From NCBI GenBank assembly GCA_030650425.1, contig JAUSED010000008.1, positions 132,554 through 196,553 of the forward strand: a stretch of 64,000 nucleotides of DNA, written 5' to 3'. Numbering within the stretch: position 1 is the stretch's first letter; each line of letters begins with the position of its first letter. This document shows, in pieces, positions 3,001-45,000 of this stretch. The stretch is from Candidatus Omnitrophota bacterium (GTDB lineage: Bacteria; Omnitrophota; Gorgyraeia; Gygaellales; Profunditerraquicolaceae). A program made the position numbers.

Positions 3001-6000
3001 CAAAACAAACTTACGATGATATTCGCGTTCTTATTCGTAGAGAAGAGCCTGACATCGCACATATTCACAATGTTTTATTTATGATTTCTCCTTCTGCGTA
3101 TGATGCCTGTTATGATGAGCAAATACCGCTTGTGCAAACTTTGCATAATTTCCGCTTTTTGTGTCCGATAGGCATCTTTTTCCGGCAGGGTAAGATTTGC
3201 GAACAATGTCCTTCTTTGGGAAAAATCAGCGCGGTCTTTTATAAATGCTGGAAAAATTCTTTCTTAAAATCTTTTTTGCTCGTTAAGGTTGTGGGCTCGC
3301 TTGTTCAAAAGGTTATCTTACAGAAGAAAGTGAGCGCCTTCATTTGTCTAACGCACTTCGCGAAAGAGAGATTTGTTCAATTGGGAGTGCCGCAAGAAAA
3401 GGTTTTCATTAAGCCAAATTTTCTGGATGAAGATCCCGGTGCTGATATGAATAAAGACTCATATGCTATTTACGTTGGCGCGTTAAGGGATTATAAAGGA
3501 ATTAGAACCCTTATTCGCGCTTGGCGTGAAATAAAAAACGCCCCGCTCTTGAAAGTTGTCGGTAGCGGGCCTTTAGAAGCAGAGCTTAAGGGGTTATCCA
3601 AGGATTTGAATATTGAATTCGTCGGGCAAAAACATTTTAGGGAAACCTTAATTTTAATAAAAAATGCTTCTTTTTTAATATTGCCGTCTGAATGTTATGA
3701 AACCTTTCCGCGGGTGGTCATTGAAGCTTATGCCTGCGGGGTGCCGGTTATTGTCAGCCGGTTGGAGGCATTAAAAGAGATAGTGGAAGAAGGCAAGACA
3801 GGGGTATTTTTTAATGCCGGAGACATCGGTGATCTGGCGTTAAAGATAGACAGATTCATTCAGCGTCCGCAAGATCTTAAAGCGATGGGGTTGCATGTCC
3901 GCCGAAATTTTGAGGAGCAATATACTCTTAGCAAGAATATGGTTCTTTTGGAAGATATTTATCAGAAAGTTTTAAAATGATTTCGTCAAAAAAAAGTATT
4001 CGTTTAATTTGTGCTATTGAGCCGTCTTGAGGAGGAGTGGTGGGTAAAGGCGCAGATAAAAAAGTTGAACTTAGTATTGTTATGCCGTGTCTGAATGAGG
4101 CAGAGACACTCGGAACCTGCATAGCTAAAGCGAAGAAGTTTCTGGAATCCAACGGTGTGAACGGTGAAATCATTATCGGAGATAACGGCTCAACAGACGG
4201 TTCCCGGGAGATTGCAGAAAAAGCAGGCGCCCGCATTGTAGCGGTAGCGCAACGCGGCTATGGTTCGGCTATTTACCACGCTACCTTGGCGGCGGCGGGC
4301 CAGTACGCGATTGTAGGTGACTCCGATAACACCTATGATTTTTCTGATCTACTGCCGTTTTTAGAGAAATTGCGCGTAGGTTATGACTTGGTAATGGGTA
4401 ATCGATTCCTCGGTGGTATTCGGCCCGGAGCAATGCCGTGGAAAAACCGGTACATCGGCACGCCAGTATTGACGGCAATAGGCCGTCTTTTCTTTCATTG
4501 CTCAGCGAATGACTTTAATTGCGGGCTCCGCGGCTATTCCTTGGAAGCGTTTCGTCGTATGCATTTGTGCACAACGGGAATGGAATTTGCTTCGGAAATG
4601 GTAATTAAGGCAACTATCCTGGGGATGCGTGTTACCGAAGTTCCTACCACGCTTAGCCCTAGCGGCCGCTCGCGACCCCCACACCTGCGGCCGTGGCGGG
4701 ACGGATGGCGGCATCTGCGTTTTATGCTTCTCTACAGCCCGCGCTGGTTATTTTTCTATCCCGGAATTTTTTTTATATTTATCGGCAGCCTATTAGGCGC
4801 TTGGCTGCTGCCGAAAGCCAGGACAATCTTTGGAATATCATTAGACATCCAAACTCTGCTCTTTTGTGCCGCCGCAGTCTTGCTTGGTTTCCAAGCCGTG
4901 CTTTTTACTGCCTTAGCGAAAATATTCTTAGTGAACAGCGGTTTATTACCCCGTAATAAATGGTTCGACCGTATATTCAGACTTCTAAATTTAGAGAGAG
5001 GTATCTTTTGCGGCGTATTGTTGCTGCTGGCAGGATTATCAGGCGCGGTATTTTCCGTTTTTGAATGGGGGAGAAACCATCTCGGGCCATTAAATCCCGA
5101 AGTGAGCATGCGGAGTGTTATCCCTTCCGTGCTCCTGATTATCCTTGGTTTTCAAATAGTGTTTGCGAGTTTTTTCTTTAGCGTCCTTGGTATCAATATC
5201 CGGGGATCTAAGGTATGGTCTAAGGCAGAGACAGGAGGCAGGGAAGCATGAAAATCGCGTTAGTCAGGCCGCCGGAAGTTAATCCTTATTGGACTCCTCC
5301 TGATCCTCCTTTGGGGATCGGTTATCTATGTTCGTATCTAAAGGCGAACAATATGGAATGCCGGATATTTGACGCAAATTTTAATGCCTGGAAAGAAGAT
5401 GAGGCCGTAGAGAGGGTAATAGAATACAGGCCTGATCTTGTGGGTTTTTCTGCGATGACCCACGAGATTAAAATGGCGCATACAATTGCTTTGAGAATCA
5501 AAAATTCCATTAAAGGCGTGGCTATCGTTGTCGGCGGCTGCCATGTAACAGCTTTACCCAGAGAGACGATTCAAGAATTTCCCGCTTTTAACTATGGCGT
5601 GTTCGGTGAAGGCGAAAAAACTATGTTAGAGCTCGCCCAATACCTGCTAAAAGGAAATAGCGGAGGGTTAAAAAATATTAATGGTTTAGTGTATAGGGAG
5701 AATAACGGCGAGGTAACCTTAAATTCTTTTCGTCAGAGATTAAGTTCAGCGGAATTAGACAAGCTTCCTTACCCGGAATTTAATCAATACTACGCGAACC
5801 GCCAATCGCTTGCCGGCAGGAAGAGCCATTATGTGATTATGTCGAGCAGGGGTTGTCCTTATAACTGTGTTTTTTGTATGCAGGTTTTAGGAAGGGAAAT
5901 CAGGAGGAGGTCTCCTGAAAGCGTAGTTAGTGAAATAGAGTACGCTGTAAAGAGCTATGGCGCCCACACTATATTTTTTGCCGATGAGATATTTTTATTT

Positions 6001-42000: not shown

Positions 42001-45000
42001 GGGCCAGAATATCAGGATGAACTCTCCGGAAAGAGTAGGGGAAGAAGTTGATTATGTCAAAGGCTTAGGCGCAAAGAGGATTTTTTTCCATGACGATACT
42101 TTCAATTTGGGAATTGATAGGACTATCAAATTAACGCAGATACTAAAAGATAAGGAAATAGAATATGCTATTTCCTGTCGTGTTAAACCTGTTAATGAAG
42201 AAATGATTGCTAAGTTAGTTGAGTCCGGCTGTAGGCATATAACCTGGGGTGTAGAGAGCCTTTCCGAGAAGATGTTGGGAACGATTGAGAAGAAAATTAC
42301 CCGGGAAGATGTAAGGAATGCTTTTGACATCTGCGCTAAATATTCAGATAGGATGTCTACCGGAGCATTTTTTTGCGTTGGGGCCCCGGGTGAAACCAAA
42401 GAGACAATAAAGAAGTCAGTTGATTATCTAAATAAATATATCAAATCAACCCATGGGCCGGGGGCTTCCATGCTCTATGTTCTACCGGGAACTAAGATTT
42501 ACCGCGATATGATTAAAAATAAAGAATTTGATGAGAAGACTTGGCTAATAACCGATTCGGTTTATTATTATACAAAGGAACATAATATATCGATTCTAAA
42601 TAGATGGCGTAAGGCGATTAATAATAGCGGTATAAGGTTGCCGTTTAATTATAAATATTTCTGGGATTATGCCACAGTTGAGCAGAAAGAAAAGGTTGGG
42701 GCTCTAAGGAAGGGCTTCCGTAAAAATATCAAGAAAATAGCCAGATTTATTAATATACTGCGTAACAGGTATTAAATACAACTAGGTTATGTAATATGAA
42801 TACAAAAGAATTTACTTTATTGGATAAATTTCTTTCTAATTATCGTTTGTCGGTAGTTATTAAGTATATTGAACAAGATGATGTTATCCTTGATTTTGGT
42901 TGCGGTGTTCAGCATTATCTACTTAATCGTTTCAAGGATAAATTTAAGTTTGGCTATGGGTTAGATTCTGATATAAAAGATTGTCAGAAAGGAAATATAG
43001 TATTAATAAATTACAAATATCAAGGTATCTTGCCTCTAAAAGATGATTTCTTGAATAAAATTTTTTTACTTGCTGTTCTGGAGCATATTGAAATGAAAGA
43101 TGTTGAAGCGCTTTTCTTGGAGTTCTCTAGAATTTTAAAAAAGAACGGACGCATTATTATTACTACCCCAACCCCACGGTGTAAAGCAATCTTGGAATTT
43201 ATTGCTTTTAAGCTGAAATTAGTTGCTGCTGAAGAAGTTGTTGACCATAAGCATTATTATATTGCAAAAGAGATCAATGATCTGGCAAGGGTAAATGGCT
43301 TAAGGGTTATTTATTCTAAGTTATTTCAATTTGGTTTAAATAGCCTTTATGTATTGGAAAATTAAATATGCAAACGACAAAGGATTTGTATAAATTACGT
43401 TTTGATGAAAACGAAAAATGCCGCAAAAATAACTTATGGAAAGTACTTTGCAAAAATTTTTTACAAAACTTTATTAATTCTGAGTCAACTGTCCTTGATC
43501 TAGGAGCGGGATTTTGCGAATTTATTAACAACATTAGGGCAAAGATTAAATATGCTGTAGATATAAATCCTCATCTCAAGAATTATGCTGAAGGTGGCGT
43601 GCATGTTATAAATACGGATTGTGCTAATTTACAAGAGATAAGCACTGGCTCAATTGATGTTGTTTTCTCAAGTGAGTTTTTTGAACATTTAAAAAATAAA
43701 GAAGAGCTATTCGTGATACTTAAAGAGGTGCATAGGATATTACGCGAAGGAGGTAAGTTGATTGTCATTTGTCCAAATATTCGCTATGTTGGCCATAAAT
43801 ATTGGGATTTTATTGACCATGGTTTACCGCTGACTCATTTGGGCATGCGTGAGGCGCTTCTGATGCACCATTATTCTTTAGTTAAGCTAGTGCCAAAGTT
43901 TCTACCTTATACTACCAAAAGTTGTTTTCCCAAGAGTCAGTATTTGCTAAAAATATACTTAAAGTTACCAATTCTGTGGAGGATATTTGGAACCCAGATG
44001 TTTATTATTGCTGAAAAGAAGAGAGTAGAATAATGGAAATATTTATTTTTTCTATTTTGAATATAGGTCCGCTTCTATGCTCTTATATGTTAACCCGTAA
44101 GTATTTTTCATTTAGAGGATATGTCGATACGCTACTCGCGTTCTTAATATTATTTTATACTCAGATTATAGCGACAATTACCCTGCTCGGAGTTCTCCAT
44201 ATTTTATACCTACGTAACATTCTGCTATTTAATTCAGTAATGTTTTTTCTGGTTTGGCTTATTTCAAGGCCGGCACAAGGTTGCAAAGTCAAAAATGATT
44301 TAAGCGGGTTTGTAGCGTGGCTACGTGCATTTTCTCTCACTGATAAGATTATAATTTTCTGTTTTTCTTTTATATGCGCCTTCGCCTTGGTTAAAGTGGC
44401 GGTTAATCTTATTAATCCGCCGTTTGGATGGGATGATTTGAATTACCACTTTACTTTTGCGGTAGAATGGCTTAAAAGCGGGACGCTTGTAACGCCAATA
44501 GTTGTTAGCGATTATCCCGCGCCAAGTTATTATCCATTAAATGGAAGTTTTATATTCTTTTGGCTATTATTGCCTTTTAAGAATGTTTTTCTGGCCGATC
44601 TAGGGCAAGTACCGTTTTATATTGTTACTTTTTTATGTATGTATTCTATTGGTAAAAAAGTCGGCCTTAGCCGCAGGTATTCATTTTACGCGGCTATCTT
44701 ACTTCTGCTTACGCCTAATTATTTTAAACAAATGAAGATTGCTTATGTGGATGTTATGGTGACTGCCTTCTTTTTACTCGCTCTTAATTTTTTGTTTAAT
44801 CTACGAAAGGATTTTAGTATCAAAAATATCCTGCTTATTGGATTATCCACCGGGTTATTAATAGGCACTAAAATAATAGTTATTCCGCACGCGTTAATTA
44901 TCGCTTTATATTTTTTATGGATATCATATTTACTATTTGTTAGAAATAAGCTATATTCCAGATTTCTTTTGTCAGTTGTTCTTTTTGTATTAGCCATTGT

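Follow-up and report, generated by a model that had tools for sequence, protein, structure and literature searches.

The question raised by this locus is what three cobalamin (B12)-type radical S-adenosylmethionine (SAM) enzymes do among genes for a cell-surface polysaccharide. The enzymes, called here rSAM1, rSAM2 and rSAM3, are encoded in a stretch of 64,000 nucleotides (the window) from Candidatus Omnitrophota bacterium (GenBank assembly GCA_030650425.1, contig JAUSED010000008.1, positions 132,554 to 196,553). Enzymes of this kind belong to class B, the largest and least characterised radical-SAM subclass. To our knowledge, the characterised class-B members that act on sugars all come from antibiotic pathways. 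An earlier note on this DNA, made from the sequence alone, proposed that the three enzymes C-methylate the sugars of a surface glycan and that such a system is rare.

Here we describe the architecture, gene neighbourhoods and relatives of the three enzymes. A role in glycan tailoring is very likely for all of them. With somewhat better than even confidence we regard them as optional tailoring enzymes in glycan-decoration modules that resemble the Arn and Gtr systems, each built around a family-2 glycosyltransferase (GT2) and a membrane glycosyltransferase of the GT-C fold. What the analysis shows is the domain architecture, the fold, the conserved gene neighbourhood, fusions to glycosyltransferases, and a GT2/GT-C backbone that occurs both with and without the radical-SAM gene; the reaction type, the substrate stage and the acceptor are inferred.

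Three divergent enzymes with class-B architecture

The three open reading frames (ORFs) lie exactly where the earlier note placed them, carry the cysteine motifs that it quoted and contain no internal stops (Table 1). All exceed the Pfam gathering thresholds for the B12-binding domain PF02310 (rSAM1, rSAM2 and rSAM3: E 5e-22, 3e-13 and 6e-19; 78, 50 and 69 bits against 32.1) and for the radical-SAM domain PF04055 (E 6e-27, 2e-20 and 3e-23; 95, 74 and 83 bits against 29.5). These scores are far above chance. The enzymes are divergent paralogues with pairwise identities of 25-32%. Neither of the two family alignments (A1 and A4) shows any variation in the GG-x-H segment of the Rossmann domain.

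The one enzyme of the three that was modelled, rSAM1, gave an AlphaFold (AF2) model with a predicted local distance difference test score (pLDDT) of 91.4. Foldseek superposed this model over its full length on TsrM (TM-score 0.70-0.76) and AprD4 (0.73), and on QCMT, OxsB, TokK and CysS as well. With TsrM, OxsB, QCMT, TokK and CysS (TM-score 0.65-0.76) it shares a Rossmann domain, a partial TIM barrel and a C-terminal helical domain. Profile hidden Markov models (HMMs) for all three enzymes and structure prediction for rSAM1 agree, and at the level of sequence the class-B architecture can be taken as established, with cobalamin use as a prediction. AprD4 uses no cobalamin; a similar N-terminal domain can be cobalamin-free.

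A mechanical ORF list gives rSAM2 a longer form from a TTG at 29646. The ATG at 29775, which overlaps the stop of the upstream GT2 gene by 8 nt, is the more likely start. Each of the three enzymes has a cationic C-terminal tail with many aromatic residues, and no other segment of rSAM1 or rSAM3 is as amphipathic as this tail. Such tails fit a peripheral membrane enzyme that acts on a lipid-linked substrate.

Association with GT2 and GT-C glycosyltransferases

The earlier note placed each enzyme next to a class-I methyltransferase and a GT2 for polyprenol-phosphate sugars. This holds for rSAM1, whose start is overlapped by 4 nt by GT2_a and which is followed by MT_a. rSAM2 has its GT2 (GT2_b) and no adjacent methyltransferase; rSAM3 has three methyltransferases (MT_b, MT_c and MT_d) and a GT2 (GT2_c) that is reached only beyond a GT-C gene. 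The label given to the GT2 enzymes is reasonable by homology, and the case is strong for GT2_b only, which matches GtrB (5ekp) over its full length at E 2e-80 and ArnC at E 8e-41 and scores 231 bits with PgfS. The top matches of GT2_a, GT2_c and GT2_d are DPMS, ArnC, AglJ, PpgS and dolichyl-phosphate hexose transferase, all below equivalog cut-offs. For GT2_a the best Protein Data Bank (PDB) matches are DPMS (5mlz) and ArnC and the best NCBIfam matches, both below cut-off, are AglJ and dolichyl-phosphate hexose transferase, the latter being also the best NCBIfam match of GT2_c.

Two large membrane proteins, TM_b and TM_c, are 33% identical over their full length (E 2e-99). They have essentially no Pfam match and are 'hypothetical' in public records, and their GT-C family is present across Omnitrophota. 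A sequence search with TM_c against the PDB gave no match; GT-C membership was recognised through the predicted fold. TM_c is predicted to transfer a lipid-linked sugar to a periplasmic acceptor. Since GT-C enzymes take polyprenyl-(di)phosphate-linked donors at the outer face of the membrane, the radical-SAM enzymes appear to sit within GT2 plus GT-C modules of the Arn/Gtr type.

The arrangement is conserved. rSAM3 represents a tight Omnitrophota group of more than 110 orthologues with 56-87% identity, nearly all of 464-469 aa and mostly of exactly 465 aa. The rSAM3 alignment set comprised 79 metagenome loci (cited by L numbers), annotated with HMMs built here, and the recurrent order in Omnitrophota is GT2(GtrB-like) - [B12-rSAM] - GT-C - methyltransferase - rSAM3 - GT-C - GT2 - GT2 - Wzy_C. 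A GT-C gene adjoins the rSAM3 orthologue in 13 of the 19 loci whose flanks extend 3 kb or more to either side, and a GT-C or GT2 gene lies within 3 kb in 18 of these 19. Of the 36 loci with sufficient flanking sequence, 19 have a class-I methyltransferase directly upstream of the orthologue. One locus from another Omnitrophota genome (L072) is syntenic with window positions 38544-63688 through priA and fmt and is without the three methyltransferases. Directly 3' of the GT-C gene, a GT2_c-type gene is found in L073, L076, L081, L086, L087, L106 and L109, and GT2_d followed by Wzy_C is seen again in L072, L075, L076, L079, L080, L091, L110, L154 and L155.

The reciprocal comparison started from three GT-C family members on contigs absent from the rSAM3 match list, a small sample that is biased towards absence of the radical-SAM gene. 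All three loci (L154, L155 and L156) have the backbone GT-C - GT2 - (GT2) - Wzy_C - GT9 - GT9 - DegT. A B12-type radical-SAM gene (B12-rSAM) lies within 7 kb in L154; none does in L155 or L156. The radical-SAM gene is an optional addition to a conserved GT2/GT-C pair, as expected of a tailoring enzyme. The methyltransferases and the carbamoyltransferase/SxtJ unit are likewise optional in loci of this type. Pairs of AbiEii toxin and helix-turn-helix antitoxin genes are inserted in the glycan cassette of L155 (2552-3780) and L156 (1507-2268 and 4546-5759).

A wide family associated with envelope glycans

The rSAM1 family was examined in 67 loci, all from uncultured genomes. It occurs in more than 15 phyla, among them Planctomycetota (including Brocadia), Chloroflexota, Acidobacteriota, Patescibacteria, Elusimicrobia and Aenigmarchaeota. 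The 215 ORFs at positions +/-1 and +/-2 relative to the radical-SAM gene include 18 further B12-rSAMs, 6 radical-SAM enzymes with a SPASM domain, 14 GT2, about 12 GT1/GT4 and 4 PMT_2 (GT-C) proteins, together with 6 nucleoside-diphosphate-sugar (NDP-sugar) epimerases/dehydratases and 3 each of DegT proteins, sugar nucleotidyltransferases and polysaccharide deacetylases. Compared with the 1-2% or so of bacterial genes that normally encode glycosyltransferases, this is a large enrichment. At least two B12-rSAMs are present in about one locus in three, and in the Brocadia locus L041 two genes of the family flank a GT2.

Distant relatives (38-40% identity) carry the B12-rSAM domains within giant ORFs that combine several domains and range from 1,300 to over 3,400 aa. 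A single ORF in L142 (7026-17231), more than 3,400 aa long, reads GT2 - B12 - rSAM - GT9 - class-I methyltransferase - GT1 - GT2. ORFs in L141 (2589-6932) and L143 (27-4205) join the B12-rSAM to GT9, and the next ORF of L143 (4218-9389) holds six GT2 domains. Such fusions are direct 'Rosetta-stone' evidence for a role in glycan assembly. The polysaccharide context seen by the earlier note is thus conserved across many phyla and fixed even in fusion proteins. Giant multi-domain ORFs with B12-rSAM domains also occur in L136, L139, L147 and L148, and the giant ORFs may be connected with the 'very long proteins' reported for Omnitrophota (bioRxiv 10.64898/2026.06.07.730766).

The supposed rarity of the system did not survive the homologue searches: among the 8,000 candidates scored, 2,424 and 2,869 proteins passed E <= 1e-10. 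The B12-rSAM family is widespread in metagenome sequence data.

Proposed pathway

In the pathway that we propose, a GT2 would take a sugar from its nucleotide-activated donor and attach it to polyprenyl phosphate on the cytoplasmic side of the membrane, as homology to GtrB, ArnC and DPMS suggests. The B12-rSAM would then alter the sugar by radical chemistry in the cytoplasm, where many genomes also provide class-I methyltransferases. The most probable substrate would be the polyprenyl-phosphate-linked sugar, and the most probable reaction methylation of an unactivated sugar carbon through hydrogen abstraction by the 5'-deoxyadenosyl radical and transfer from methyl-cobalamin. The carrier would be flipped across the membrane by a putative flippase, and TM_b or TM_c may then pass the modified sugar on to an envelope glycan in the periplasm, probably an LPS-like (lipopolysaccharide-like) polymer made by the surrounding Wzx, Wzy_C and GT9 genes. 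The modification would have to precede flipping, since radical-SAM enzymes need a cytoplasmic reductant and SAM.

A lipid-linked stage is favoured in Omnitrophota by the position of the radical-SAM gene between the GT2 and GT-C genes, by the cationic amphipathic tails and by the precedent of ArnD, NaxD and DprE1/E2, which tailor polyprenyl-phosphate sugars ahead of GT-C transfer. We put the chance of a lipid-linked substrate for the radical-SAM step a little short of even. The broader proposal, that B12-rSAMs are a widespread fourth component of polyprenyl-phosphate/GT-C systems and install C-methyl branches or radical rearrangements on a lipid-linked monosaccharide, is tentative.

Substrate, reaction and alternatives

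The results that weigh against this account concern the transport machinery, the stage and the reaction, and they are taken here together with the alternatives. No GtrA, ArnEF or EamA-type flippase was found among the 60 window ORFs of at least 100 aa, a scan that left ORFs below 100 aa and the membrane domain of GT2_a outside it. TM_a holds the position of the GT-C gene in module 1, and its comparison with the GT-C alignment A3 by hhalign was not significant (probability <=0.2). The relatives of rSAM2 in the fetched loci are only about 30% identical and offer no context of true orthologues; in L079 and L080 such genes stand directly 5' of the GT-C gene, but rSAM2 of the window is separated from it by a sugar-precursor block of 7.3 kb. 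An Rfam scan of the window gave no match and so no riboswitch (including one for cobalamin), tRNA or small RNA, and we know of no glycan structure for any Omnitrophota. The B12-rSAMs might also belong to the same glycan pathway and act at another stage, on soluble nucleotide sugars or on a growing lipid-linked oligosaccharide in the manner of GenK or Fom3, whose own substrate is nucleotide-activated; the sugar would then reach the GT2 in modified form. In L004 the rSAM1 homologue is found amid PGM/PMM, two sugar-1-phosphate nucleotidyltransferases and GlmS, with no GT2. The fusion proteins carry GT2, GT9 and GT1 domains of the Leloir type. The fused GT2 of L142, tried as a GtrB/DPM1-like enzyme that would tie it to the lipid-monosaccharide stage, is chondroitin-synthase-like instead. 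NDP-sugar epimerases/dehydratases and nucleotidyltransferases are also frequent among the neighbours. The L004 context and the L142 GT2 favour a nucleotide-sugar or oligosaccharide stage for some family members. Against this stand the Omnitrophota gene order, with the radical-SAM gene between GT2 and GT-C, the loci L072 and L110, which have no nucleotide-sugar enzyme adjacent, and the tails, which suggest membrane association. As an account of the three enzymes we consider another stage possible, on the unlikely side.

The reaction is a separate matter. The earlier note's C-methylated sugars were an extrapolation: no curated B12-rSAM family of NCBIfam reaches its cut-off with rSAM1, rSAM2 or rSAM3, so that no subfamily name can be given and no reaction is identified in this way. 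The best scores against cut-offs are BchE 188/481, HpnJ 173/578 (cut-off 577.6) and the ladderane enzyme 142/360 for families that do not methylate, rSAM_ocin_1 122/282, QCMT 111/360, KedN5 100/700, HpnR 94/650 and PhpK 144/600 for methylase families, and ApyD 160/750. The top matches of rSAM1 and rSAM2 are BchE and HpnJ, both non-methylases, with HpnJ the best or second-best match for rSAM2 and rSAM1. AprD4 (6fd2), a cobalamin-free sugar dehydratase (a radical-SAM 1,2-diol dehydratase of apramycin biosynthesis that acts on paromamine), is the top PDB sequence match of all three (E 9e-21, 4e-17 and 5e-12). The enzymes could therefore rearrange, ring-contract, dehydrate, epimerise or oxidise the sugar, as HpnJ, OxsB, BchE and AprD4 suggest by analogy, and leave every methyl group to the adjacent class-I methyltransferases, of which up to three dedicated ones stand beside rSAM3. 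The family matches are, however, far below threshold and carry little weight either way, and the AprD4 match is limited to the radical-SAM domain, whereas those to QCMT/MgmA (9ccb), OxsB and TokK (E 1e-4 to 1e-10) extend over the B12 domain. The relatives between them perform radical methylation, polar methylation, ring contraction and dehydration, and the reaction cannot be read from similarity. Function within class B is not predictable from sequence; HpnJ, BchE and the ladderane enzyme share the main similarity-network cluster with methylases, and methylases make up most of the class-B enzymes characterised so far (PMC9204698). Two of them methylate a sugar carbon: GenK, and MoeK5, whose target belongs to the phosphoglycolipid moenomycin (PMC9204698). 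For these reasons C-methylation would be, by analogy, the most probable single chemistry, as a prior and not as a result; given a glycan-tailoring role, methylation stands at about even or slightly better, and we consider an exclusively non-methylating role improbable. That the glycan context is incidental, and that the substrate is a hopanoid, a polyprenol, a fatty-acyl lipid, a ribosomally synthesised and post-translationally modified peptide (RiPP) or a cofactor, is very improbable. Many class-B enzymes do use lipids, peptides or tetrapyrroles, among the matches below threshold are ApyD, rSAM_ocin_1, the ladderane lipid enzyme, HpnR and PhpK, and an MGDG-synthase-like (monogalactosyldiacylglycerol synthase-like) gene is present in the window and a polyprenyl synthase gene directly 5' of the GT-C gene in L156. 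The association with GT2, GT-C, GT1 and GT4 enzymes across more than 15 phyla and the covalent fusion to glycosyltransferase domains argue the other way. Neither BchE, HpnJ or HpnR nor any other curated subfamily claims the enzymes, so that the refuting case which the earlier note set for itself is not borne out, and no bacteriochlorophyll, hopanoid, ladderane, tetrapyrrole or RiPP precursor/protease genes are found among the annotated window ORFs.

Two further candidates were rejected. Methylation of a phosphonate or of phosphorus, in the manner of PhpK or Fom3 and prompted by the PhpK matches, finds no phosphoenolpyruvate mutase or phosphonate genes in the window. Membership of TIGR04295 ('B12_rSAM_oligo'), which we take to be possibly another glycan-linked B12-rSAM family, was rejected at scores of 49-87 against a cut-off of 400.

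Relationship to known systems

The ArnC/ArnD/ArnT pathway for aminoarabinose on lipid A is a close known system, with analogues in FlmF2/NaxD/FlmK of Francisella and in DprE1-E2 with Emb/Aft of mycobacteria. Pathways of the Arn type tailor the sugar with a deformylase, a deacetylase or a pair of oxidoreductases. Here that place would be taken by a B12-type radical-SAM enzyme, alone or together with class-I methyltransferases. The locus also differs in that no ArnE/F-type flippase was found, that identity to ArnT is about 11% and that action at the lipid stage is something we infer. The likeness to GtrA/GtrB/GtrC, PgfS/PgfM, CsbB/YfhO, GacI/GacL and PpgS/Rv3779 lies in the full-length GtrB homologue GT2_b, the GT-C family nearby and the Wzx plus Wzy_C locus. 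As in three-component systems, there is a GT2 of the appropriate type (GT2_b) with a GT-C alongside, and the GT2/GT-C linkage is conserved. Systems of the Gtr type use an unmodified sugar and no radical enzyme; here no GtrA was detected and the GT-C family has no Pfam model.

Among B12-rSAM enzymes a functional parallel may be drawn with HpnI/HpnK/HpnJ, where the GT2 HpnI places N-acetylglucosamine on a lipid and the B12-rSAM HpnJ, whose substrate is a lipid-linked glucosamine, remodels the lipid-linked sugar (PMC9204698). The HpnJ scores are however 104-173 bits against 577.6, and hopanoid genes are absent from the window. HpnJ itself is proposed to contract a ring, not to methylate, and the product here would go to a GT-C enzyme. 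GenK, GenD1, Fms7, MoeK5, Fom3 and TokK share the B12-binding and radical-SAM domains and methylate unactivated carbons, several of them on sugars (PMC9204698). GenK-type enzymes belong to actinomycete antibiotic clusters, whereas here the setting is envelope-glycan assembly in uncultured phyla, the similarity is remote and methylation is a prediction. AprD4 resembles the three enzymes in sequence, in fold and in having a sugar substrate, and differs in matching over the radical-SAM domain only and in being cobalamin-free.

The words sugar, glycan and polysaccharide are absent from a 2026 review of B12-rSAM enzymes, and the literature that was searched describes no B12-rSAM in O-antigen, lipopolysaccharide, capsule or GT-C systems, nor in Omnitrophota. 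This is in line with the earlier note's view that such enzymes are essentially uncharacterised in cell-envelope glycans. Arn/Gtr-type modules with a radical-SAM tailoring step are undescribed in the literature searched, yet widespread in sequence data.

Organisation of the locus

The G+C fraction of the window is 0.34-0.47. Its roughly 60 ORFs all lie on the + strand, and many of them overlap by 4-8 nt. Pfam annotation, which covered every window ORF of at least 100 aa (60 ORFs), describes a very large envelope-glycan locus that ends at priA and fmt. It includes a Wzx flippase, three to four Wzy_C proteins, WecG and Bac_transf initiating transferases, glycosyltransferases of the GT1, GT2, GT4 and GT9 types, two carbamoyltransferases and ManC. 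The GC skew is positive across the whole window (1-64000).

Table 1. Features of the envelope-glycan locus, with window positions
Feature	Position	Strand	Length (aa)	Description
GT2_a	4037..5251	+	404	Family-2 glycosyltransferase, module 1 putative donor synthase; PF00535 E 2e-22; ~5 C-terminal transmembrane segments, aa 237-388
rSAM1	5248..6627	+	459	B12-binding radical-SAM enzyme; ATG 5248; RGCPYNCVFC aa 201-210, C203-C207-C210
MT_a	6627..7325	+	232	Class-I SAM methyltransferase; Methyltransf_11/25 E 2e-19; no NCBIfam cut-off reached
TM_a	7322..8734	+	470	Polytopic membrane protein, at least 8 transmembrane segments; no Pfam/NCBIfam match; position of GT-C in related cassettes
Wzx	8736..10184	+		Wzx-type flippase
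SPASM enzyme 1	11868..12941	+	357	Radical-SAM/SPASM enzyme, not B12-type; CNLSCPMC; PF04055 + PF13186; between sugar nucleotidyltransferase and carbamoyltransferase
Carbamoyltransferase	12945..14717	+		Second carbamoyltransferase of the locus
Nonulosonic-acid block	15602..22911	+		Pseudaminic/legionaminic-like pathway: NeuB, CMP-transferase, PseG-like hydrolase, DegT aminotransferase
PseG-like hydrolase	17346..18311	+		Below cut-off
SPASM enzyme 2	24253..25347	+	364	Second radical-SAM/SPASM enzyme; CNARCVFC; PF13186 + PF04055; 5' of WecG/TagA-type transferase
GT2_b	28796..29782	+	328	GtrB/PgfS/ArnC-type polyprenyl-phosphate glycosyltransferase, module 2 putative donor synthase; 2 C-terminal transmembrane segments
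rSAM2	29775..31208	+	477	B12-binding radical-SAM enzyme, most divergent of the three; ATG 29775; RGCPYSCSFC aa 186-195, C188-C192-C195
Sugar-precursor block	31256..38526	+		Epimerase, UDP-glucose dehydrogenase, SDR, GFO/IDH/MocA oxidoreductase, GHMP kinase, nucleotidyltransferase, HAD phosphatase, transaldolase
TM_b	38544..40649	+	701	GT-C-family membrane glycosyltransferase, TM_c paralogue; member of alignment A3 (GT-C fold in the model for A3)
MT_b	40646..41362	+	238	Class-I SAM methyltransferase, frequent upstream partner of rSAM3; Methyltransf_31/23
rSAM3	41378..42775	+	465	B12-binding radical-SAM enzyme; GTG 41378; RGCPVNCLFC aa 193-202, C195-C199-C202
MT_c	42796..43365	+	189	Class-I SAM methyltransferase; Methyltransf_23 E 3e-12
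MT_d	43368..44033	+	221	Class-I SAM methyltransferase; Methyltransf_11 E 1e-11
TM_c	44033..46111	+	692	GT-C-fold membrane glycosyltransferase; ~14 transmembrane segments and C-terminal soluble domain
GT2_c	46108..46812	+	234	Small soluble DPM1-like GT2, module 3 putative donor synthase; DPMS 5mlz E 2e-23, ArnC E 9e-13
GT2_d, Wzy_C	48508..50419	+	225, 409	AglJ/DPM1-like GT2, then Wzy_C-domain membrane protein; conserved downstream cassette end
TM_d	50409..51560	+	383	Polytopic membrane protein, no family match; N-terminal region …FQSDSVDYLETA…
Carbamoyltransferase series	51557..53939	+	602, 132, 52	Carbamoyltransferase, SxtJ-family small membrane protein, unannotated hydrophobic ORF
Hydrophobic ORF	53781..53939	+	52	Place of DUF5989 in L154 and L155

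Two radical-SAM enzymes with SPASM (twitch-like) domains bring the total of the locus to five. They reach no NCBIfam cut-off, and they and the GT-C membrane proteins were absent from the earlier note. SPASM enzymes also stand beside B12-rSAMs in L011, L014, L018, L019, L025, L037, L038, L046-L049, L062, L074 and L092, and the pairing of a SPASM enzyme with WecG also occurs in L074.

The region of the rSAM1 module (4001-8000) has G+C fractions of 0.47 and 0.43, against 0.34-0.43 in the remaining window. The higher G+C, and the presence of rSAM1 relatives with 50-65% identity in many unrelated phyla as against the restriction of rSAM3 to Omnitrophota, suggest that this module may have been acquired laterally.

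The nonulosonic-acid block further holds WbqC, a PIG-L deacetylase, an MptE-like (DUF115) putative transferase and two ORFs without a family match. The sugar-precursor block, positioned between rSAM2 and the GT-C gene TM_b, resembles pathways for GDP-heptose and uronic-acid precursors. The carbamoyltransferase series towards the end of the window looks like a conserved three-gene O-carbamoylation unit and is seen in L073 too. TM_d could be a further ArnT-like transferase. When it was tried as a GT-C enzyme, its N-terminal region (Table 1) aligned loosely, and without significance, to the region of the first periplasmic loop of the GT-C family, at an hhalign probability of <=0.2.

Implications for cell-surface chemistry

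The surface (S)-layer glycan of the anammox bacterium Kuenenia contains a methylated N-acetylhexosamine and a 174-Da 'dimethyl-deoxyhexose', assigned from mass alone (PMC5088730). Together with the Brocadia genes of L041 this methylation is a lead, not evidence. If the reading proposed here is true, sugars called 'methylated' on the basis of mass only, as in the anammox S-layer glycan (PMC5088730), need not all carry O-methyl groups.

Envelope sugars with C-branches would then have gone unnoticed in Omnitrophota, in Planctomycetota including the anammox bacteria, in Chloroflexota, Patescibacteria and Elusimicrobia and in some archaea. Such sugars would be overlooked because mass spectrometry takes every +14 Da as O-methyl. 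The cassette is small, with three to four genes, and would make a clonable test system. Decoration of the Arn/Gtr type would gain a new tailoring chemistry, cell-surface chemistry in these organisms would become cobalamin-dependent, and many proteins of candidate phyla that are now annotated as 'radical SAM protein' or 'hypothetical protein' would acquire a functional frame.

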